A DNA stretch of 64,000 bases, from NCBI GenBank assembly GCA_905478415.1, contig CAJQIG010000004.1, positions 75,523-139,522 on the forward strand, written 5' to 3'. Made by a program: the position numbers and the translations under genes. Source of the DNA: an uncultured Patescibacteria group bacterium. GTDB lineage: Bacteria > Patescibacteriota > Microgenomatia > UBA1400 > PJMF01. Numbering within the stretch: the stretch's first letter is position 1; the number at the start of each line of letters is the position of its first letter. Below the pieces are notes generated by a model. That model saw only the letters and a list, made by a program, of their open reading frames with translations. It searched no databases and was not told the DNA's origin. Below are positions 7,020 through 54,626 of the stretch, in pieces.

Positions 7020-7256
7020 CTACTCGACAGTATACTTAAGCCCTTCAATCACTGCCTTAAGCTTCTTAGGCTGTACCTTGGTTGGATCGTACTCAATTGT
7101 TGTCTGTGAAGCTGCGTAGCTCGTAGTGGCCTGCAATACCCCAGCTACATCCTCGAGCTCTCCATCGATACTCATACTGCAGCTGGTGCAATGCATACCA
7201 CTAATCTTAAACACAACTTTTTCTCCAACTGGTTTTTTCTTTAGAAAATTGAACAT
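7020..7256 (-). CDS. copZ: Heavy-metal-associated (HMA) copper chaperone, CopZ-like
   Basis: GMHCTSC metal-binding motif; 78 aa; first-but-last gene (3' end) of the cop operon. Confidence 0.8.
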   Translation of the reverse strand: MFNFLKKKPVGEKVVFKISGMHCTSCSMSIDGELEDVAGVLQATTSYAASQTTIEYDPTKVQPKKLKAVIEGLKYTVE

Positions 7257-7265
7257 ACCTACCTC

Positions 7266-8375
7266 CTATATAACTTCCATTGTGCCACTATACATACCCA
7301 TTGAACAAGTATAGGTATACCGTCCTGGCTTCTTTGGTATAAATGTAACGGTTTGCCTATCAGTTGACTCTAAAAACTTTGAAATACCAAACTCTTTGAA
7401 AACAAATGATAACGCGCACGAATAGACTCCATTACTTTGTAACGTTAATTGAACTGGAACTCCACTTTCAACCTTAAAATAATTGGGGCTATATCCGTTG
7501 CTCAACACATTCAGTGTCACTTGTTGCACTCCGTTTGTAACTGCAGTTGTAGTGGTATTCGAAAATCTATCACCAGAAAAAAAGTAAGTGACCGGCCTTA
7601 CAATTCGGTTAAGCGTTAGTGGTGAGTCCATGACCAATAGTACTCCATTCACACTGTATACAGCCATGCCAACGAGCACGTAGGCAGCAACTTTCATAAA
7701 GGTTTGATACCAGCCTTCACTGAGTTTTGCAGTTGCAACACCAATCAACGCAAAGAGAGGAAGCGTTCCTAATACAAACGAAAACATAATCACGGCCCCT
7801 TGAAAGGGATTACCAGAATTTATAGCTAATACTTCCATTGCTTGTGTAACTCCACACGGAATAAAAACCGTCATTAACCCCAGCACAGCTGGAGCAAATA
7901 AAGCTCTGCTCTGACTGGTATTTCGAACTAGTCGTTGCAAAAACTTTGGTGGCTGAAAAGCTACATACCTAAAAATTGGGTGTACATCTAACAGATTCAT
8001 AGCTGTAGCAAACATGAAGAGAGCAGTGAAGACCTGGAAGCCAAGTCGAACTCCCAAACTCAAAGTAATTGCCGAACCTGCTAACCCGAGTAAAAATCCA
8101 AGGACTGTATGAGCTACTAACTTTGTTGTCAAAAACATGGCCACTGGCATCCAATCAAGCGAATCAAAGGACTTCAAAGAAAAATTATTCTTTTGTAACG
8201 TCTGCAAGTAGGCAGACTTTTTCTTTTCTTTTATCTTTTTTTTGTCAGAGATAATTTCGTCACGTTCTTGGTCTTTTTGATTTGCAATCACACTGGTCAA
8301 CAAACCACCTTGCATAGCTACACACGAGAGGCCTCCAGTTGTTAAGCCCGTTAAAAAAATAAGTAAAGTATTCAT
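7266..8375 (-). CDS. DsbD_2-like polytopic membrane protein fused to a C-terminal cupredoxin-like Cys/Met-rich domain
   Basis: TM motifs GGLSC and IPCGVT in helices. The C-terminal beta-rich domain ends YTYTCSMGMYSGTMEV (cupredoxin-like). Tight spacing to copA and copZ (8-9 nt). Confidence 0.55.
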   Translation of the reverse strand: MNTLLIFLTGLTTGGLSCVAMQGGLLTSVIANQKDQERDEIISDKKKIKEKKKSAYLQTLQKNNFSLKSFDSLDWMPVAMFLTTKLVAHTVLGFLLGLAGSAITLSLGVRLGFQVFTALFMFATAMNLLDVHPIFRYVAFQPPKFLQRLVRNTSQSRALFAPAVLGLMTVFIPCGVTQAMEVLAINSGNPFQGAVIMFSFVLGTLPLFALIGVATAKLSEGWYQTFMKVAAYVLVGMAVYSVNGVLLVMDSPLTLNRIVRPVTYFFSGDRFSNTTTTAVTNGVQQVTLNVLSNGYSPNYFKVESGVPVQLTLQSNGVYSCALSFVFKEFGISKFLESTDRQTVTFIPKKPGRYTYTCSMGMYSGTMEVI

Positions 8376-8383
8376 GGTGTTGC

Positions 8384-10636
8384 TTATTCTAAATGAGTAG
8401 TTTTTAATCGTAAGGCATTCAGGACTACACTCACACTTGAGAAAGCCATGGCCGCACCTGCTAACACCGGATTCAGTACAATTCCAAAGGTGGGATAGAG
8501 AACACCCATTGCTACTGGAATGAGCACCACGTTATATCCAAAAGCCCAAAATAAGTTTTGACGAATGTTGCGCATAGTAGCCTTAGAGAGTGAGAGCGCC
8601 GTTGGCACTAAACTAATGTCACTTCTCAGAAGCGTGACCCCAGCTGACTCAATCGCCACATCAGTTCCACCTCCCATAGCAATACCAACGTCGGCAGTAG
8701 CCAATGCTGGTGCATCATTTATGCCATCACCAACCATAGCGACAACTGGATATTTTTTGCGCAACTCCCGAATAGTCTTCTCTTTTTGATCTGGAAGAAC
8801 CTCAGCAACAACCTCTGTAATGTCAACTTCTTTAGCTATGGCTAATGCAGTACTCTTATTATCTCCCGTTAACATAATGCTGGTCACACCCATCTTCTTG
8901 AGTGTTTCTATAACTGATGCAGACTTTTCTTTGACTGGATCAGCTATTCCAAAGAATGCAACCAGTTTTCCCTTTACCGCCATAAATGTGACAGTCTGTC
9001 CTTTTTCCATCAGGCCCTGAATTTCATTTGTATACTGTTCTGGAATAGAAATAGTTTGTTCTGCTAGTAACTTTTGACTGCCAATCACAATAGCTATACC
9101 GGCAACTTGAGCAGTTACCCCCTTTCCACTGATATCTTTAAATTTCTGCACTTCTAGAGATGATTTAGACGGTAGTTTCTCTTTGGCATAGAGTGCTAAA
9201 GCTGTAGCCAGTGGATGATGAGAGAGTTCCTCTACTGCATACAACTGTGCTACCGTTTCTTTTTCTGCACCTGTGACAAAAACTGCAGCTTGAACTGTCG
9301 GACTTCCTTCAGTCAATGTGCCCGTTTTATCGAAAACAACTGCGCTGACTTTGTTCGCAATTTCTAGTGCCCGAGCATCTTTGATTAACACTCCTAACTG
9401 TGCTCCTTTACCCATACCAACCATCAGGGATGTTGGTGTTGCCAAACCTAAAGCACAAGGGCAAGCAATAATTAGTACATTGATCATACTTACTAGTGCA
9501 AATAAAAACCGTGGTTCTGGACCAATGATCATCCAAACACCAAAAGTAGCTACTGCTATTACAATCACAACTGGCACAAAATAAGATGCAATCGTATCAA
9601 CGAGTGCTTGAATTGGTGGCCGAGACCCCTGAGCCTCTTTCACAGACCGAATAATAGCAGCTAGCATCGTCTCACTACCTACTTTGGTAGCTTTCATCTC
9701 AAAACTACCAGATTTGTTGAGCGTTGCACCAACAACTGCATCACCAACTTGCTTACTCACGGGCATACTTTCTCCCGTTACCATACTTTCATCAATAGAA
9801 CTTTCTCCTTTACTCACTTGCCCATCAACAGCAACTTTTTCTCCTGGCTTAACCAGTAAGGTATCTCCAACTTTGACTTGGTCTGTAGGAACTTCAACCC
9901 ACTCTCTACCTTTTTTAACTAGAGCAGTTTTGACCTGTAAATTAAGTAATTCTTTAATTGCAGAAGATGTTTGAGCTTTAGCCCGAATCTCGAGATACTT
10001 ACCAAGTAAGATAAACGTGATAATAGCTGCTGCAGCTTCAAAGTACACATGAGTCTCAATCCCAGCTTCCGTAAACTGCGCACCAAAGATTGTTACTACC
10101 ACTGAGTAAAAGTATGCCACCGAAGTTCCAAGCACCACCAAAGTATCCATATTAGCAGAAAAATTTTTCAGACCAGACCAAGCTCCCTGATAAAAACGCT
10201 TTCCAACCCAAAACTGGACAGGTGTTGCTAGAACCATCAAAACCCAAGGGTTATGTAAGAACTCAGGCACTGCTGGCACCATACTTGCTATTAGTAGCAC
10301 TGAAAGCACTCCACTCACCTGCAACTTTGACTTCAGCGATTGCAACTCCTTAGCCCGCTCGACTTCAGCAATATCTCCATCATCTTCAATATGAGCTACA
10401 TACCCCACAGAACTCACTGCAGCTACAAGTGTATCTGTAGTTACCTGGTCACTGTTGAAAGTAACGGTGGCTTGTTCGTTGGCGTAGTTGACCGCGGCTT
10501 CAGTTACTCCAGTGGTCTTACTCAATTTTCTAGAGATATTAGTAGCACAACTAGCACAGTGCATACCCGAGACATGAAAGGAAAGTGTGCTTTTATTGTC
10601 TGTTTTAGTCGACATATTTTTGGGGTTCCTTTTCAA
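8384..10636 (-). CDS. copA: Copper-translocating P1B-type ATPase
   Basis: N-terminal HMA GMHCASC, CPC in TM6, [15 protein letters not shown]. Confidence 0.93.
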
Positions 10637-11087
10637 ATACTTTTAAACAACCACTGGCACAGAAATAAAAATCATGACCTTCATGCTTGGTGTGAAAGCC
10701 TGCTGTCTTGGGAGAAACTCTCATATGGCAAACGGGGTCTGTAACTACTGGCACTAGCTCTTTCATTTTTAATGTAAGCTCATTGGCCATTTGAGTACCT
10801 GTGTTCTGATCAACAAGCACCTCACGTAGGAGGTCACTGGCCGCAATAATTTTGGGACTACTGACCTTGTAGTACACCTGTTTTCCATCGCGACGACTCT
10901 CAACAATTTGCGCATCTCGAAGCACCATCAGATGCTGACTAATATTTGCCTGAGGCAAGTCAAGCATGGTATGAATATCACCTACTGGCAACTCTTGGTC
11001 TCGAAGTAAGTGAATAATTTCTAATCGCCTAGGATGTGCAATTGCTTTGAGCAAGTGGGCATGCAGTTCGAAAATTTGTGAATACAT
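10605..11087 (-). CDS. ArsR/SmtB-family metalloregulator fused to a C-terminal YHS/TRASH metal-binding domain
   Basis: [15 protein letters not shown]...[10 protein letters not shown], plus DPVCHMRV...[24 protein letters not shown]. Overlaps the copA start. Confidence 0.8.
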
Positions 11088-26486: not shown

Positions 26487-27785
26487 TTATACTGGATCAA
26501 ATCCCGCATACTTAAATAATTTTTTTGACTTACTCTCATAAATCCAGATAAAATTTTCATTTGGTCTGTAAAGTAAGTGCCATCTATTTACTTCTCCTTT
26601 TGATAAAGGAATTTCAATTTTTCCAACAAGATTAGTTTCTCCCACAGATCCATCCGAAGCAACACCACTCACCATTTCTTGTACTTGCGGCTCTGTTAAT
26701 CCAAGTAAAGCTGAGCCAGTCATAAGGTGCGTTCTATTTTCTCCCAAGTCTGGTCTATACTTTCTAGAACTCTCAAGATCAACTTGCTCAACCCCCGCAA
26801 TTGCATCACTTGGATCTTTCTCATGAAAATACTCGACGGTATCAAATTGCACACTGCCAAAAGGTCCTGAAACGAGAATTACATCCAGATCTTCTCTTCG
26901 TTGTAGCATTAGAACAGCGCCAGCTGCCTCAGACCAAGTAGATTGATGTATCAGTGAAATCATTCCCGTTTCCCGATTTTTGATAAGAGCTGCCCCACAC
27001 TGAACAAATCCACGACTATACATTGTTTCTCCTTGTGAGCAAAGTGTCCAACCTTCACTACCCGAAAGTAAACCCATTGTTTCCTCCTGGGTTGCAAACG
27101 GTTTGGTATATATATCATCACTTTCTGAAAACTCAACACCTTCTAGTACTTCCAAAGGTTCTCTCTGAATGCTTTCAATTTTTTCAGGCAAATAAACCAT
27201 CACTCCTTCAGGAATAATGGGTAAATACATTTCTAGAGATGCAGAGAAAATGCCATCAAGCCCCTGTTCTGCATAGAGATTCATTGATGGGTTTTGTTTA
27301 AAGTACTCAACGAATTCAGAAATGGGAACGGCTATCAAGCAGGGGTCTTTCCGTTCACCCACGTACGAGTTATACACTTTATCTGAAGCTTCATCAAAGA
27401 AAAAGGTAAAGGATCCTCTAATGCCATTTTCTAAATCTTCCATAGAACCACCTCGGTAGACATAGGGAGTATCAAATTTTTTTGAGAAAATTTCCATAAA
27501 CCTAATAACAAACGCATTCACATGGATACCTGTTTCGGGTAAATCACTAAGTTTTTCAATAGGATCTTGATTTAAGGCAGTAAGCAGTTCCTGATTTAAC
27601 TCAACAACTTCTGGCTCAAAAACTGTAGGATCTAGTAGCCAACCTGGATCTTCAAGGATCTCTAAAAGAATCTCCGCAACTACTTCATCCCATCGTTCAA
27701 TTACAATATCAGATAACTCAGCATCTTTAGCAACTCTATCAATTTGTTCTATTGCTCGCTCTGAAACTGAAATTTCGTGCATCAT
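26487..27785 (-). CDS. Hypothetical acidic protein, 432 aa
   Basis: Long ORF, no recognisable motif. Confidence 0.4.
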   Translation of the reverse strand: MMHEISVSERAIEQIDRVAKDAELSDIVIERWDEVVAEILLEILEDPGWLLDPTVFEPEVVELNQELLTALNQDPIEKLSDLPETGIHVNAFVIRFMEIFSKKFDTPYVYRGGSMEDLENGIRGSFTFFFDEASDKVYNSYVGERKDPCLIAVPISEFVEYFKQNPSMNLYAEQGLDGIFSASLEMYLPIIPEGVMVYLPEKIESIQREPLEVLEGVEFSESDDIYTKPFATQEETMGLLSGSEGWTLCSQGETMYSRGFVQCGAALIKNRETGMISLIHQSTWSEAAGAVLMLQRREDLDVILVSGPFGSVQFDTVEYFHEKDPSDAIAGVEQVDLESSRKYRPDLGENRTHLMTGSALLGLTEPQVQEMVSGVASDGSVGETNLVGKIEIPLSKGEVNRWHLLYRPNENFIWIYESKSKKLFKYAGFDPV

Positions 27786-49218: not shown

Positions 49219-50511
49219 TTATACTCGACCACGAAGCAACATTAAATCAACCACACTTTTCACGGCTTTCATATACGTAGCCATGCGCATTGACTGTTTA
49301 GAGGTTTCTTTCACTTTCCAAATTTCGATAAAAGCTCTATCCATAAGCGGTTGCAACTTGGCCAAAACTTCGGCATGAGACCAATAGTACCCATGTAAAT
49401 TTTGAACCCACTCAAAGTATGAAGTCGTAACTCCACCAGCATTTGCCAAAACATCTGGAATCAAAACAATGCCTTTTTTTTCAAGCAGAGCATCAGCTTC
49501 TGGCGTAGTTGGACCATTGGCCATTTCAATAATTGCCGCAGCCTTAATTTTAGGAGCTATCTCAGCCGTTATGACATTCTCAAGTGCGGCTGGTACCAGC
49601 ACAGTGACATCAAGGGCAAGTAGCTCCTCGTTAGTAATAGCTTTTCCCCCACTCAATGTGCCAGTTTTTTGTTTGGTAGCGAGTACTTTTTCAGGATCAA
49701 GTCCTTCAGGGTTGTAGATTGCTCCCTTTGAGTCAGAAAGCGCTACCACAGTGTACCCACGATCAAATGCATGTTTTGCAAACCAGTACCCAACATTTCC
49801 AAAGCCTTGAATAGCAATGCTGACTTTTTTCTTGTCACTCCATTTCATTTTCTCTGCAAGTTTTTCAAGTACATAGATTCCACCCAAACCAGTTGCTTCT
49901 TCTCTACCCTGTGAGCCACCAAGTTCTAACGGTTTCCCCGTAAAAGTAGCTACAGGATTTTCTCCCTGACTTTTATTTGTTTCGAGTTGAAACTGCTCAT
50001 ATTCATCAACCATCCATGCCATAATTTGACCATTGGTATTGACATCAGGAGCAGGCACATCAACCCAAGGACCAATGTACGGAGCTAAAAATCGAGCATA
50101 GGCGCGACTGAGTCTCTGCAACTCACCAGCGCTGAGTATGCGTGGATTTACTATAACTCCACCTTTACCTCCACCATAAGGAATACCAGTAACTGCACAT
50201 TTCCAGGTCATCCAAGTTGATAACGCCATAACTTCGTCACGGCTCACATTTTCATGAAATCGAATGCCTCCTTTGTAAGGACCGCGGGCATTATCGTGTT
50301 GTGAGCGAAAAGCTGTAAATTCACGACTAGACCCATCATCCATCTGGATGGTGAGTGATTCCTCAAAAACTCTATCTGGAGTTTTTAGCTTATCGATAGC
50401 AGTATCAAATCGAGACTGTACTTCATCAGCGTATTCATTTCTCAAGATCTTGGCAACTTGTTCTAACTGTATTACCGCATTTTCATGCGCACTGTGCGTC
50501 TTCATACTCAA
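49219..50511 (-). CDS. gdhA: Glutamate dehydrogenase (Glu/Leu/Phe/Val dehydrogenase family)
   Basis: Catalytic KGGIRF and IPYGGGKGG; NAD(P) Rossmann GFGNVG. Confidence 0.9.
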   Translation of the reverse strand: MSMKTHSAHENAVIQLEQVAKILRNEYADEVQSRFDTAIDKLKTPDRVFEESLTIQMDDGSSREFTAFRSQHDNARGPYKGGIRFHENVSRDEVMALSTWMTWKCAVTGIPYGGGKGGVIVNPRILSAGELQRLSRAYARFLAPYIGPWVDVPAPDVNTNGQIMAWMVDEYEQFQLETNKSQGENPVATFTGKPLELGGSQGREEATGLGGIYVLEKLAEKMKWSDKKKVSIAIQGFGNVGYWFAKHAFDRGYTVVALSDSKGAIYNPEGLDPEKVLATKQKTGTLSGGKAITNEELLALDVTVLVPAALENVITAEIAPKIKAAAIIEMANGPTTPEADALLEKKGIVLIPDVLANAGGVTTSYFEWVQNLHGYYWSHAEVLAKLQPLMDRAFIEIWKVKETSKQSMRMATYMKAVKSVVDLMLLRGRV

Positions 50512-50587
50512 CCTTTCATCTTTTTTTAGGATCTAGAAGCAAAGCTTAGCACCTCCTAAACTACTTCTCATTTTTTTTAATTATTTT

Positions 50588-51655
50588 TTATGAATCTTGT
50601 CGTTCAAGCCATCGCTCAGCGTCAAGTGATGCAGCACAACCTTGTCCCGCTGCAGTAACCGCTTGCTTATACCTCACATCAACATTATCTCCTGCTGCAA
50701 ACACACCTTCGACTGAAGTCATGCTTGGATACTGTACTAATCCATCAGCTAAAGCGGCTTGTGCATGCTGCACACCAACCTCAGTAGCACTTTGGCGAGT
50801 TACTACGTAACCGTGTCCATCTAGTTCTATTTGCTCAGCAAATATTCCTGTTTGAGGACGATGCCCAATAGCAATGAAAACACCTTGAGCCGGTAGTATT
50901 TTTTCTTCACCATTTTCTTTAACTTTAACCTGTTCAACTACTTGAGTTCCAATTATTTCCTCAAGAGTAGTGTTCCACAGTACCGAAATTTTTTCGTGGT
51001 TTAAGACACGCTCCTGCATAATTTTGCTGGCTTTAAAGCTATCACGACGATGAATCACTGTTACGTGACTCGCAAACTTCGCAAGCGCTAACGCATCCTC
51101 CATAGCACTGTCTCCACCGCCTACCACATAGGTTTCTTTCTCTCTAAAGAAGGCAGCATCACAAACAGCACAGTAACTCACTCCTTTGGCTGAGAATTCT
51201 TCCTCTCCTAGAATACCAGGCTTAATTGGTGAAGCTCCGGTCGCAATAATCACGGCATCAGCTATAAATTCTGGCTCACCTGTTTTTATTTTTGCAGAAA
51301 GTTCTTTTTGTTCATCAACCGTTAAGTCTGCTAACTTTTGAGGATCGGTTCCTTCTGGAAGTGTAGTCCAAATTTTAAAGGGACGAGCAGAAAAATCGAC
51401 AGCTGTCACATGAATATCTTGAACAGTTGTGCCAAAGCGTTCTGCTTGCTTACGAAACTGCATCATCATTTTTGGCCCCATAATTCCTTCAGGGAATCCA
51501 GGAAAATTTTCAACGTCTGTTGTAAACATTAGTTGTCCACCTGATTGATACCCAGCAAAAACTGTGGTCTCAAGTTGGGCTCTGCTGGTATAAATAGCAG
51601 CGGTATATCCTGCTGGACCAGAACCAATAATAGCAATCTTTACAGCTTTTGACAC
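50588..51655 (-). CDS. trxB: Thioredoxin reductase
   Basis: FAD-binding GSGPAGYTAA, redox CAVCD, NADPH-binding GGGDSA. Confidence 0.9.
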   Translation of the reverse strand: MSKAVKIAIIGSGPAGYTAAIYTSRAQLETTVFAGYQSGGQLMFTTDVENFPGFPEGIMGPKMMMQFRKQAERFGTTVQDIHVTAVDFSARPFKIWTTLPEGTDPQKLADLTVDEQKELSAKIKTGEPEFIADAVIIATGASPIKPGILGEEEFSAKGVSYCAVCDAAFFREKETYVVGGGDSAMEDALALAKFASHVTVIHRRDSFKASKIMQERVLNHEKISVLWNTTLEEIIGTQVVEQVKVKENGEEKILPAQGVFIAIGHRPQTGIFAEQIELDGHGYVVTRQSATEVGVQHAQAALADGLVQYPSMTSVEGVFAAGDNVDVRYKQAVTAAGQGCAASLDAERWLERQDS

Positions 51656-51694
51656 AACTATCCTTTTCTTTTCAATTTCTATTTAGTACAAAGC

Positions 51695-52039
51695 TTACTC
51701 TTTCAGAGCAGCTTCAATCATATCTACATAGCCCTGCTCACCAGGAAAGCCAACTTTTTGATCAGCAACTTCACCATCTTTAATGACAACAACTGTTGGG
51801 ATACTCATCACACCATAGTTAGCAGCTGTTTGACCATTCTCGTCAACATTAACCTTAACAATGTGAGCTTTGCCTTCGTAGGTACCAGCTAGTTTATCGA
51901 CAATTGGGGCTGCCATTTGACAAGGGCCACACCACTCTGCATAAAAATCAACAAAGACTGGTTGACCTGCTTCTTTTGCTTTATCAATATTTTCCTGGAA
52001 ATCTGCATCGCTCCAGTGGGCTGCTTTTGAATCTGCCAT
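51695..52039 (-). CDS. trxA: Thioredoxin
   Basis: WCGPC active site. Confidence 0.9.
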   Translation of the reverse strand: MADSKAAHWSDADFQENIDKAKEAGQPVFVDFYAEWCGPCQMAAPIVDKLAGTYEGKAHIVKVNVDENGQTAANYGVMSIPTVVVIKDGEVADQKVGFPGEQGYVDMIEAALKE

Positions 52040-52101
52040 AGTTTCTCCTTTTTTATTACTTTCGGTATTTCCTACCTACTACTTTACTACTATAGAACGT
52101 A

Positions 52102-52341
52102 CTATTCATACTTAAAAAGTTCTTTTAAGACAACATCAAGGTCATCGGTTCTTGATTCTCGAGAACACTTACCAGCTTCACCAGTGAGCATATCTCGAGC
52201 GGTACGACCTAAAGAACTGCGAACCGCAATAATTTGACGACAAATGTCGATACACGCACGCTCTTCTTCGTACATCTTAATGACACCATCAATCTGACCA
52301 CGAATTCGTTTAAGCTGAGCTAGTTTGGGATCTATTACCAT
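52102..52341 (-). CDS. CsoR/RcnR/CstR-family (DUF156) metal- or persulfide-sensing repressor
   Basis: LKRIRGQIDGVIKMYEEERACIDICRQIIAV. Two Cys and no His in the sensing positions (CstR-like). Start trimmed to Met13 because the 5' end of the longer ORF is the operator palindrome. Confidence 0.7.
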   Translation of the reverse strand: MVIDPKLAQLKRIRGQIDGVIKMYEEERACIDICRQIIAVRSSLGRTARDMLTGEAGKCSRESRTDDLDVVLKELFKYE

Positions 52342-52352
52342 GCTTTTTAATA

Positions 52353-52369
52353 TACCCCCAGGGGGTATG
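52353..52369. promoter_or_regulatory. Perfect palindrome ATACCCCCaGGGGGTAT; candidate CsoR-family operator upstream of the csoR-like/trxA/trxB operon
   Basis: Read directly; closely resembles the B. subtilis CsoR operator TACCCTACGGGGGTATGGTA. Confidence 0.55.
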
Positions 52370-52385
52370 GGTGTCAAGAGAGAAT

Positions 52386-54167
52386 TTATGCCTGCTTCCG
52401 CAGTAACACAATCTCTTTAAGCAGCTGGTTTTGCTTTTCTTCTTCGACAGAAGTTTTATCTGGCTTGTCGTCGAGTAGGGCTAACTGACGAGTAATTTGG
52501 TTAATTCGCTCGACAATACTGACTTTTTTAAGTTTTTTAAGTGCCGAGTTCCACTCGGTTTCAGAATCTGGATCAACGTTACGCTTTTGGTGTTCTATAT
52601 TTGCTTGCAATTCAAAAATAGTTTGTTTGAGATCTTCTGGCAAGTGTGAAACAAACTGCTTAATATCAACCGAACCTTCAAGGTCGGCCATTGAACGAAT
52701 AATTTGATTTACACCAGGGGTCTCAAAGTTAAACTCACTTATTTCTATAGCTCGATCTAACCATTTCTTTTCGTGAGCTGAGAAAAGAAGGAAAATGCAG
52801 TACTGCTCTTGCACTTCTTTTGGTGAAAGCACTTTGGCAGGTTTTTGTTCCTTTTCTGATTGTTTCACTTTAGCAGGAGTGATTTTTTTATGTTTTTTAT
52901 AGGAATCAACGTCATCTTTGACACTGCTTACTTGTGTTCCCAACTGTGTAGCTACTTTTTTAACATAATGTTCAAGCTCTACGGCGTGACTCACACTCGC
53001 AAGCATGGGAGCCAACTCCTCCATAATTTTTCGCTTTCCCGTTGGGGATTGGGCATCAAACTGGGTAAAGGCTGCAGCAATCAGAAAATCATATGCTGTC
53101 ACACTTTGTTTCGAGATATCTCGCCATACTTTTGGATCTTTTCGAATTAATTCGTCTGGATCTTTACCTTCTGGAACCTGGAGCACACGCAGTTCTACTC
53201 CGGTCGATTTAAGAACTTCGATCGATTTTTTGGTAGCCTTCACACCAGCACTATCACTATCTAGAGCCAAGATAACTGTTTCGGCTACCCGTGCCAGTAA
53301 CTTGGCATGATCCTCAGTAAGAGCCGAGCCTTTAATAGCAACAATATTGTTCACATGGGCCTGCTGCGAAGTAATGACATCGAACTCACCTTCAACCACA
53401 ATCACTTGTTTTTCTTTACGAATATGCTGAAAAAGTTCACTAAAACCAAATAACATCTTACTTTTGTGGTAGAGCAATGTTTCTGGAGAGTTAATATACT
53501 TGGCATCTTTTGCAGTCGAATCCAGTAAGCGCCCCGAGAAACCAACGACGCGACCTCTGATATCTCGTAAAGGAAACATCACCCGACCTCTAAAGCGGTC
53601 ATAGTAACGATTATTTTTCCCTTTAATAACCAGACCTGCCTGTTCTAGCAACAGTAACGAGTATTTTTTCTTATTATGTAAAAACTTGATCAGCCCATCC
53701 CATTCGGGCATCGCATATCCCAACTGAAAAAGAGTAATCGAACTATTCGAAACTTTTCTATCTGCTAAGTAGGCGCGAGCATCTGCACCTGTTTTATGAG
53801 TGGTCAATAAGTAGTGGTAGTATTCTTTGGCTAAATTAAGAACTTCGATAATTTGTTCACGCAAGGCGTCATCACTGGACTTTTTATATGCTTCAAGAGT
53901 AATGTTGGCTTTATCTGCTAAATCTTGGAGAGATTCGGCAAAAGTCATACCTTCGTACTTTTCTAAAAAGGTAAAGACATCACCACTCTCGCCACACCCA
54001 AAGCACTTGTATCGTTGCAATCGTTCATCAACAAAAAAGGAGGGACTTTTCTCTCCATGAAAGGGACAGAGACCTTTAAAATAGGTCCCACTACGCTGCA
54101 AAGTTATTCGGGAACCAATAACCTCAACAATATCGGTGGCATCTTTGACTTCTTGAATTTGAGACAT
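52386..54167 (-). CDS. dnaG: DNA primase
   Basis: Zinc finger CPFHGEKSPSF; TOPRIM EGEFD...DSDSAG. Confidence 0.9.
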   Translation of the reverse strand: MSQIQEVKDATDIVEVIGSRITLQRSGTYFKGLCPFHGEKSPSFFVDERLQRYKCFGCGESGDVFTFLEKYEGMTFAESLQDLADKANITLEAYKKSSDDALREQIIEVLNLAKEYYHYLLTTHKTGADARAYLADRKVSNSSITLFQLGYAMPEWDGLIKFLHNKKKYSLLLLEQAGLVIKGKNNRYYDRFRGRVMFPLRDIRGRVVGFSGRLLDSTAKDAKYINSPETLLYHKSKMLFGFSELFQHIRKEKQVIVVEGEFDVITSQQAHVNNIVAIKGSALTEDHAKLLARVAETVILALDSDSAGVKATKKSIEVLKSTGVELRVLQVPEGKDPDELIRKDPKVWRDISKQSVTAYDFLIAAAFTQFDAQSPTGKRKIMEELAPMLASVSHAVELEHYVKKVATQLGTQVSSVKDDVDSYKKHKKITPAKVKQSEKEQKPAKVLSPKEVQEQYCIFLLFSAHEKKWLDRAIEISEFNFETPGVNQIIRSMADLEGSVDIKQFVSHLPEDLKQTIFELQANIEHQKRNVDPDSETEWNSALKKLKKVSIVERINQITRQLALLDDKPDKTSVEEEKQNQLLKEIVLLRKQA

Positions 54168-54260
54168 GGTGTTACTTCATTCTATACTGTATCAAATCAG
54201 ATCGCTAGCAGTAGCTAGCATTCTTGACCCTCTGTGAGATACTACAGTGAAAGGAATCAT

Positions 54261-54626
54261 ATGAAAACAACAAATACTGATACTCAAAATAATAGCGTGC
54301 CACATCACAGTACTCCTTTTTCGAAGTACTTTAATATTCTCAGTGACATCGATAAAAATAAGCGCTACTCAAAAGAGTATGGCTCAATCTTGATACTCAG
54401 CCTAGTTGAGGAAGTTGGCGAAATGGCTCGCGCCTACTTGGCAGAACATGGACGTAAAAAAAGCAATCTTTCGGCCCAAGCTGATGAAACCTACGAGCAA
54501 GAACTTGGCGACATCCTTTTAGTTATTCTTCGCTTTGCCCGCATTAAACACATTGATCTAGACGAACGGTTAATGTACTCACTTAATAAGATCTTGGCTC
54601 GAAAAGAAAAACCCAAGGGAAGTTAA
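54261..54626 (+). CDS. MazG-like nucleotide pyrophosphohydrolase
   Basis: EEVGEMARA...ELGDILLVIL EExxE/D motifs; start at MKTTN with GAAAGGA RBS. Confidence 0.65.
   Translation: MKTTNTDTQNNSVPHHSTPFSKYFNILSDIDKNKRYSKEYGSILILSLVEEVGEMARAYLAEHGRKKSNLSAQADETYEQELGDILLVILRFARIKHIDLDERLMYSLNKILARKEKPKGS

Follow-up and report, generated by a model that had tools for sequence, protein, structure and literature searches.

The 64-kb stretch of DNA analysed here (the window, whose numbering all coordinates follow) is part of contig CAJQIG010000004.1 of an uncultured Patescibacteria group bacterium. On its minus strand it carries a gene for a small CsoR/RcnR-family repressor, followed closely by genes for thioredoxin (trxA) and thioredoxin-disulfide reductase (trxB). 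A perfect palindrome lies within the only promoter predicted for this group of genes, and an earlier note made from the letters alone had drawn attention both to the palindrome and to the genes downstream. The features are as follows, in the direction of transcription.

52372-52377, minus strand: -35 hexamer TTGACA, its TTG mistaken for a start codon in the tracked 91-aa open reading frame (ORF)
52342-52377, minus strand: spurious N-terminal extension of that ORF (MTPIPPGGILKS), really promoter and predicted operator
52352-52368, no strand: predicted operator, a perfect 17-bp palindrome ATACCCCCAGGGGGTAT = ATACCCCC-A-GGGGGTAT, with the TAC-N9-GTA form of a type-2 CsoR/CstR box
52349-52354, minus strand: -10 hexamer TATATT, whose opening TAT is also the end of the palindrome
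52102-52341, minus strand: CsoR/RcnR-family repressor gene, 79 aa, with its ATG 7 nt after the -10 hexamer and its stop codon at 52102-52104
51695-52039, minus strand: trxA, thioredoxin (WCGPC), with an AAGGAG Shine-Dalgarno sequence, 62 nt past the regulator stop; predicted operon member
50588-51655, minus strand: trxB, thioredoxin-disulfide reductase (CAVC), 39 nt past trxA; predicted operon member

A palindromic box within the regulator promoter

On the minus strand the DNA after the dnaG stop codon (52386-52388) reads ...ATTCTCTC TTGACA CCCATACCCCCTGGGGG TATATT AAAAAGC ATG GTA ATA GAT..., and the palindrome occupies the spacer of a sigma-70 promoter (TTGACA, 17 nt, TATATT) that scores 11 out of 12, the highest in the 4 kb around the regulator covered by our promoter and terminator scan. 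Its layout between the two hexamers is A-TAC-CCCCAGGGG-GTA-T, and as a G/C-tract pseudopalindrome with TAC and GTA flanks at a promoter it has the hallmarks of a CsoR/RcnR operator. A repeat search (6-nt seed, 10-nt minimum length) missed it and a pattern search recovered it; ATACCCCCAGGGGGTAT is the sole match in the 64 kb even when up to 3 mismatches are allowed (0.05 expected by chance). The earlier note had described a perfect 17-bp inverted repeat resembling CsoR operators, and this description stands: the TAC-X9-GTA form is that of known CsoR operators (PMC3902906), the S. mitis cst operator is alike (PMC8643695), and 53 of 54 related loci have such a box at this promoter position. When a scan for ATACCC-N5-GGGTAT is relaxed to at least 10 of 12 arm matches, it finds one further window site, ATACCTGTTTCGGGTAA at 27526-27542; about 2 such sites are expected per shuffle, so that chance can account for it.

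The tracked ORF (52102-52377, minus strand, 91 aa) starts at a TTG and has the N-terminus MTPIPPGGILKS. We reject this start because the TTG belongs to the -35 hexamer (codons 1-2, TTG ACA) and IPPGGI, from codons 4-9, is a translation of the palindrome. The only ATG, that of Met13 at 52341-52339, lies 7 nt past the -10 hexamer and has no Shine-Dalgarno sequence, and we place the real start there, with a predicted product of 79 aa. The regulator mRNA is probably leaderless, because of this short distance and the lack of a Shine-Dalgarno sequence. Homologues (62 from a first search, 1152 from a profile search at E<=1e-8) are mostly 77-85 aa long and begin at the equivalent of Met13, in agreement with the suggestion of the earlier note that the first 12 codons are operator DNA. 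Several public entries (P0001, P0009, P0139, P0144 and P0158) carry N-terminal extensions reading IPPGGI, IPPRGI or IPLRGI, exactly IPPGGI in the first four; these are the translated operator, and therefore the same start-codon error recurs in public annotation. Many homologue entries are labelled 'copper-sensing repressor' or 'FrmR family'.

The regulator protein

The 79-aa protein matches PF02583 (Trns_repr_metal) over residues 7-75 with 63.6 bits (cutoff 22.8, E=2.3e-17), and none of the NCBIfam equivalogs (RicR, RcnR, FrmR) comes near its cutoff (25.8 bits against 133 for the FrmR model). An AlphaFold2 (AF2) model built with 35 homologues has helices at residues 5-25, 30-59 and 65-77 and a pLDDT (predicted local distance difference test) score of 82.6. 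The top 19 Foldseek matches of this model in the PDB are all CsoR, CstR, FrmR or InrS structures (probability 0.96-1.00), and Cys X lies at the N-terminus of helix 2 in a three-helix, all-alpha model, as in the CsoR/RcnR fold. By homology with these structures, the protein would assemble into a tetramer, a dimer of dimers whose sensing site spans the dimer interface. The codons of the sensing positions, with their counterparts in M. tuberculosis CsoR (MtCsoR) and S. pneumoniae CstR (SpCstR), are:

52252-52254, minus strand: Cys30, position X, N-terminus of helix 2, aligning with MtCsoR Cys36
52177-52179, minus strand: Glu55, position Y, aligning with MtCsoR His61 and with the SpCstR wedge Asn55
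52165-52167, minus strand: Cys59, position Z, C-terminal end of helix 2, aligning with MtCsoR Cys65 and the second Cys of SpCstR

The homologue alignment shows no variation at Cys30 or Cys59; in a separate count of 136 homologues, 135 have Cys30. Position Y is Glu in 133 of 135 close homologues and Asp4 is, like Glu55, nearly invariant among them. The residue before Cys X, Ala29 in the window protein, aligns with the second-shell Tyr35 of MtCsoR and is variable (A, T, S, G, P and others in 135 homologues, Tyr in only 1). Val occupies residue 2. With Cys X at residue 30 the chain does not reach back to X-32, and it contains no histidine. The pattern at X, Y and Z is thus C-E-C, and the alignment with CsoR, CstR, RcnR and FrmR sensing residues that the earlier note had offered as a check shows none of the RcnR, FrmR or Cu-site His residues. 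Its statement that Cys occupies X and Z in the absence of His is borne out by the alignments with solved structures. Its 'CIDIC' motif is upheld in the first Cys (Cys30) and not in the second; only 9 of 135 homologues have Cys34, and we rejected it as a sensor residue.

Position Y differs in 9 of the 53 family loci from the genome scan described below, being Ala in a subclade and Ser or Lys in single members, and these nine keep both Cys residues, the box and trxA-trxB, bar one that is cut by a contig end. We rejected Glu55 as an essential ligand on this account. Judged from the alignments, the invariant core is the Cys pair.

Additional cysteines are found in some close relatives. Cys34 itself (52241-52243) lies one helical turn past Cys30, and P0002, P0008, P0009, P0012 and P0014 have extra cysteines; some close relatives have an additional Cys two residues before Cys59 (EACKCS), and P0011 has Phe in place of the Cys at Z but retains the one at Z-2. 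Such residues may serve as alternative resolving cysteines in particular lineages.

A search of 1.84 billion cluster representatives with a hidden Markov model returned 7366 family members, and we classed the best 150 by their sensing residues. C-E-C makes up nearly the whole of the top tier of about 30 (and 39 of the 150 in total); Y-C-H-C, the pattern of Cu-type CsoRs, follows in the next tier (87/150), and C-N-C occurs once. Because of this order, the sequences place the window protein in a subfamily of its own, with Cu-type CsoRs and not CstRs next to it.

Conservation of the box and of the linkage to trxA-trxB

Scanning 185,579 species genomes gave 54 loci, 53 of them family loci (L001-L053). 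By name or isolate code they are Patescibacteria, with the exception of one unrelated protein and a few obvious mislabels; the phylum-level name of the hosts is 'Candidatus Paceibacterota', the taxonomic names in homologue entries are only Pacebacteria, Woesebacteria and 'Patescibacteria group', and the functional names are generic ('metal-sensitive', 'copper-sensing', 'FrmR family'). The 17-bp ATACCC-N5-GGGTAT box is present at the same promoter position in 53 of the 54, with 12/12 arm matches in most and 11/12 in the others, and is the best-conserved stretch of the upstream region. As in the window, the -10 hexamer begins on the last TAT of the box; mostly there is TTGACA or a one-mismatch variant at 16-18 nt spacing, and in most family loci an in-frame ATG follows 6-11 nt past the -10 hexamer without a Shine-Dalgarno sequence. 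No second box was found in the 308 kb of locus DNA searched. Variation is confined to the centre of the box, and the arms are kept as sequence with no compensatory changes, which argues for a protein-binding site rather than an RNA stem.

According to tblastn with the window proteins, most of these loci have the gene order dnaG-regulator-trxA-trxB-gdh. Over all loci collected, those from metagenomes below included, the regulator and trxA are co-directional in 75 loci, 67 of which also have trxB, with median gaps of 40 nt between regulator and trxA and 15 nt between trxA and trxB. The placement directly upstream of trxA-trxB, noted earlier for the single locus, is thus conserved. Within the window no promoter-like or terminator-like site was found between regulator, trxA and trxB, and the product of trxB matches TIGR01292 at 349 bits (cutoff 343). 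At 355 aa this TrxB is about 35-40 residues above the usual length, with an extra segment at approximately residues 95-130 and a TIGR01292 match in two stretches.

The wider arrangement, mazG on the plus strand and then dnaG-regulator-trxA-trxB-gdh (49219-54626), is syntenic across many Patescibacteria loci. The last gene is:

49219-50511, minus strand: gdh, glutamate dehydrogenase, 76 nt past trxB, often syntenic

The gdh gene might be co-transcribed with trxB, because a minus-strand scan of the 76-nt gap finds no terminator-like site. Regulator, trxA and trxB stay together where no dnaG was found in the examined flank (about ten loci) and where no gdh was found (several loci). The box is likewise retained in about ten loci with no dnaG found in about 0.7-3 kb upstream (L012, L013, L019, L032, L038, L041 and L048-L051).

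Divergent relatives and a change of operator type

Metagenome contigs were scanned with a profile of divergent C-E-C representatives (8 of 23), giving 80 mixed loci. About 25 relatives have Glu at Y, and all of these have trxA directly downstream, usually with trxB, where the contig is long enough. Many divergent trx-linked members have exchanged the type-2 box for ATACT-G7-AGTAT or ATACT-A-G6-AGTAT, a type-1 box (L059-L062, L065-L075, L078, L080 and L094), and keep both Cys residues and trxA-trxB. At the type-1 loci the box encloses the -10 hexamer (TATACT), and its final bases supply the start codon in several of them (...AGTATG). Both cysteines are kept down to about 32-35% identity and across the change of operator type. 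The trxA-trxB linkage survives the loss of flanking genes and also this replacement, which argues for a real relation of regulator to target rather than mere inherited gene order. Helix 1 reads QLKRIRGQ in type-2 loci and xLNRIEGQ, SLKRIEGQ or ALARAKGQ in the others, which hints at co-variation of protein and DNA.

Relatives of the Y-C-H-C type adjoin copA/copZ or a distant (35%) TrxB-like oxidoreductase; P0062, a C-H-C CsoR with 51% identity, lies directly downstream of a CopA ATPase. Several Cu-type loci (L077, L079, L082, L083, L092 and L055-L058) often have a TrxB-like pyridine-nucleotide disulfide oxidoreductase within about 0.3-0.5 kb downstream, 34-37% identical to the window TrxB in the first five. 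The gene order is CsoR-CopZ-oxidoreductase in L092 and CopA-CsoR-SpoU methylase-oxidoreductase in L055, and L056-L058 are truncated. Such loci may be an evolutionary bridge to the trx-linked subfamily. There is also a sizeable P-C-Y-C subgroup, with Tyr at Y (L085, L088-L091 and many of L099-L138), that has no trx or cop neighbours among the genes tested, and some of its members have an ATACCC-N5-GGGTAT box 110-140 nt upstream.

A proposed dithiol-switch repressor

In the CsoR family, tetramers bind boxes of this kind and hold residue X of one protomer opposite residue Z of its partner. From the family membership of the protein, the positions of its two cysteines, the promoter-operator geometry and the conservation alongside trxA-trxB, all of which are directly observed, we infer the remaining steps, namely DNA binding, repression, a thiol switch, its inducer and feedback. 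On balance we favour the 79-aa protein as an autoregulated dithiol-switch repressor of the regulator-trxA-trxB operon, CstR-like in its working. The reduced tetramer would bind the ATACCCCC-A-GGGGGTAT box, which fills the spacer of the single promoter and overlaps the -10 hexamer, and would exclude RNA polymerase. Thiol-oxidising stress would modify the Cys30/Cys59' pair, which by homology should face across the dimer interface, to yield an intersubunit disulfide or a per- or polysulfide bridge. The modified repressor would leave the DNA, a leaderless regulator-trxA-trxB transcript would be made, and thioredoxin and thioredoxin reductase would rise. The thioredoxin system would then reduce the thiols of the cell, and probably the repressor too, closing a negative feedback loop. 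As physiological inducer we tentatively favour general thiol oxidation over persulfides or electrophiles, because the only conserved targets are the thioredoxin system. The regulator thus most likely turns on trxA-trxB under thiol stress, in keeping with the control by thiol or persulfide stress that the earlier note had suggested, in an arrangement common to many ultrasmall Patescibacteria (the candidate phyla radiation, CPR).

Precedents exist for the separate steps. Operators that overlap -35 and -10 elements repress transcription, for example at the M. tuberculosis cso promoter, as quoted in PMC10318464. CstR loses DNA binding on treatment with persulfide or tetrathionate, an effect reversed by reductant (PMC8643695), and its disulfide forms rapidly with H2O2 (PMC11672702). 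H2O2 joins TTHA1953, another two-Cys family member, into disulfide-linked dimers, and its DNA binding is strongest in the reduced form (PMC10318464).

Four points weigh against this proposal. The closest sequence neighbours are Cu(I)-type CsoRs and not CstRs. A plain two-Cys switch does not account for the near-invariance of Glu55, although the trx-linked relatives with Ala, Ser or Lys show that this residue is dispensable. Synteny of the dnaG-regulator-trxA-trxB-gdh block means that part of the adjacency could be inherited gene order. Finally, an internal trxA promoter is possible in loci where the gap is 100-270 nt.

Alternative explanations

The main alternative, which we think unlikely while taking it seriously, is a true CstR-type persulfide sensor that departs from the dithiol-switch proposal in its inducer only: organic persulfides would link Cys30 to Cys59' through di-, tri- or tetrasulfides, and thioredoxin and its reductase would act as reductases of protein and low-molecular-weight persulfides. 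It would account for the x-C-x-C pattern without His, as in CstR, and for an operator geometry identical to ATACCC-N5-GGGTAT of the S. mitis cst operator (both PMC8643695), and thioredoxin-like proteins of S. aureus reduce protein persulfides (PMC6196236). It sits poorly with the gene partners, which are only trxA and trxB: no gene for rhodanese, persulfide dioxygenase, sulfide:quinone oxidoreductase (SQR), coenzyme A (CoA)-persulfide reductase or TauE is present in the operon or the related loci examined, and a rhodanese motif search of the window gave no match. The wedge Asn55 of CstR is Glu here, and among the 150 nearest representatives the single C-N-C contrasts with 87 C-H-C. The view of the earlier note that the protein is CstR-like rather than a Cu-CsoR is accordingly borne out for the Cys chemistry and not for the wedge Asn, the linkage to sulfur genes or sequence proximity.

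We consider it improbable that the protein is a metal sensor, binding Cu(I) or a thiophilic metal such as Cd, Ag or Zn through Cys30, Cys59' and perhaps Glu55 or Asp4, with thioredoxin guarding against thiol damage by the metal. The Y-C-H-C Cu-type CsoRs are the nearest neighbours outside the subfamily, Cu-CsoRs are the best PDB sequence matches, public databases label these proteins 'metal-sensitive' or 'copper-sensing', and Glu55 and Asp4 would be nearly invariant candidate ligands. Against these stand the replacement of the His ligand at Y and of the second-shell Tyr by Glu55 and Ala29 in a protein without a single histidine, the Ala, Ser or Lys found at Y in trx-linked relatives, an N-terminus too short for a W ligand such as RcnR His3, and an operon with no metal efflux gene. 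The window also has a separate copper cluster about 41 kb from the regulator:

7020-11087, minus strand: copper cluster, comprising an ArsR helix-turn-helix (HTH)+YHS protein (10605-11087), a CopA P1B-ATPase (8384-10636), a DsbD_2+cupredoxin-like membrane protein (7266-8375) and a CopZ-like heavy-metal-associated (HMA) protein (7020-7256)

A CsoR box was looked for at this cluster (7020-11087) and none was found. An ArsR+YHS fusion as the likely Cu regulator is unusual in itself.

It is more doubtful still that the protein is a plain autoregulator with no signal input, its cysteines structural leftovers and its role the buffering of constitutive thioredoxin expression. Negative autoregulation alone can stabilise expression, but in such a protein the two Cys would hardly be expected to persist at X and Z in relatives with as little as about 32-35% identity and with either operator type while residue Y and the residue before Cys X vary freely.

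Least credible of all is that the palindrome is an RNA hairpin that terminates or stabilises the dnaG transcript while the CsoR-like protein acts elsewhere, for although the site lies 17 nt past the dnaG stop and the RNA can form a 7-bp stem with a 3-nt loop, no U-tract follows (tail AUUAAAAAGC), the terminator scan makes no call, the region folds no better than shuffled sequence (z = +1.0), 51900-52600 has no Rfam match, the ATACCC/GGGTAT arms lack compensatory changes and, a strong counter-argument, the spacing of the box to the -35 and -10 hexamers is retained also in loci where no dnaG was found.

Novelty and wider meaning

In the literature searched, with most subscription journals outside it, we found no CsoR-family regulator of trxA/trxB and none in Patescibacteria. 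The text of the main survey of the family does not contain thioredoxin, and lists clusters 6-9 as uncharacterised (PMC8643695); a 2024 review states that the family has no characterised sensor specific for H2O2 (PMC11672702). Fold, operator type and two-Cys logic have precedents; new are the target regulon, the Glu at position Y, the host lineage and the predicted leaderless promoter-operator design.

Known signals of the family are Cu(I), Ni/Co, formaldehyde and persulfides, and a member dedicated to thioredoxin would add a redox-homeostasis class and supply the comparison protein that the field lacks for oxidant specificity (PMC11672702). More tentatively, and with the odds somewhat against it, the window protein could be the founding member of a CsoR-family class for general thiol-disulfide or peroxide stress in place of a metal, formaldehyde or persulfide, and the main redox homeostat of a large branch of the Patescibacteria, organisms with very few regulators, reset by its own TrxA and TrxB. 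The switch between type-2 and type-1 boxes within one orthologous trx-linked group makes a natural system for the study of how CsoR proteins read DNA. With a regulator, a predicted operator, a promoter and predicted targets, the locus is among few concrete, testable circuits in uncultured Patescibacteria. It suggests that the regulator is translated from a leaderless message, and it corrects a recurring annotation error, the reading of promoter and operator DNA as an 'IPPGGI' N-terminus in proteins called 'copper-sensing'.

Comparison with known systems

CstR (S. aureus, E. faecalis, S. pneumoniae, S. mitis) shares with the window protein the PF02583 fold and the X and Z cysteines without His (x-C-x-C), and the S. 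mitis CstR operator ATACCCTTATGGGGTAT has the same ATACCC-N5-GGGTAT geometry (PMC8643695). Intersubunit Cys-Cys bridging releases CstR from DNA, and by analogy the same is expected here. The two differ at position Y, which is Glu (or Ala, Ser, Lys) here and the wedge Asn in CstR (SpCstR Asn55; clusters 4 and 10). Identity to SpCstR is about 38% over 63 aligned residues, with a shorter loop between helices 2 and 3 in the window protein. Where CstR goes with genes for rhodaneses, persulfide dioxygenase, SQR or CoA-persulfide reductase, the window protein goes with trxA-trxB; its hosts are Patescibacteria and not Firmicutes, and its mRNA is predicted to be leaderless.

The Cu(I)-sensing CsoRs (M. 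tuberculosis, B. subtilis, G. thermodenitrificans, S. lividans) include the best PDB matches, 2hh7 and 4m1p (profile E ~2e-17), and have the same Cys pair and a TAC-X9-GTA G-tract operator (PMC3902906). At M. tuberculosis cso the operator overlaps promoter elements, as here (quoted in PMC10318464). In contrast, the His ligand is Glu and the second-shell Tyr is Ala in the window protein, and the adjoining genes are dnaG, trxA, trxB and gdh, not copA/copZ.

The sox regulator TTHA1953 of Thermus thermophilus is likewise a two-Cys CsoR-family repressor that forms disulfide dimers with H2O2 or Cu(II), and its regulon includes the thioredoxin-like SoxW (PMC10318464). Its operator TACNNTACNNNNGTANNGTA differs, its targets are a sulfur-oxidation pathway and not housekeeping TrxA/TrxB, and there is no evidence of orthology.

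The type-1 operators of E. coli RcnR and FrmR (TACT-G6-N-AGTA; PMC3902906) are matched by the boxes of the divergent trx-linked relatives, whereas the window itself has a type-2 box. RcnR and InrS (H-C-H-H and H-C-H-C) differ from the window protein, which has no W His about 32 residues before Cys X and no His at Y; FrmR (P-C-H-x) differs from it in that residue 2 is Val and not Pro and Y is Glu and not His.

Thiol-based sensing also raises the thioredoxin system through Spx and through RsrA/SigR, which have unrelated folds; Spx binds RNA polymerase and RsrA is an anti-sigma factor. RexT, an ArsR-family H2O2 sensor of Nostoc that induces thioredoxin (PMC8960804), is a functional analogue with a winged-helix fold and a mechanism unrelated to those of the CsoR family.

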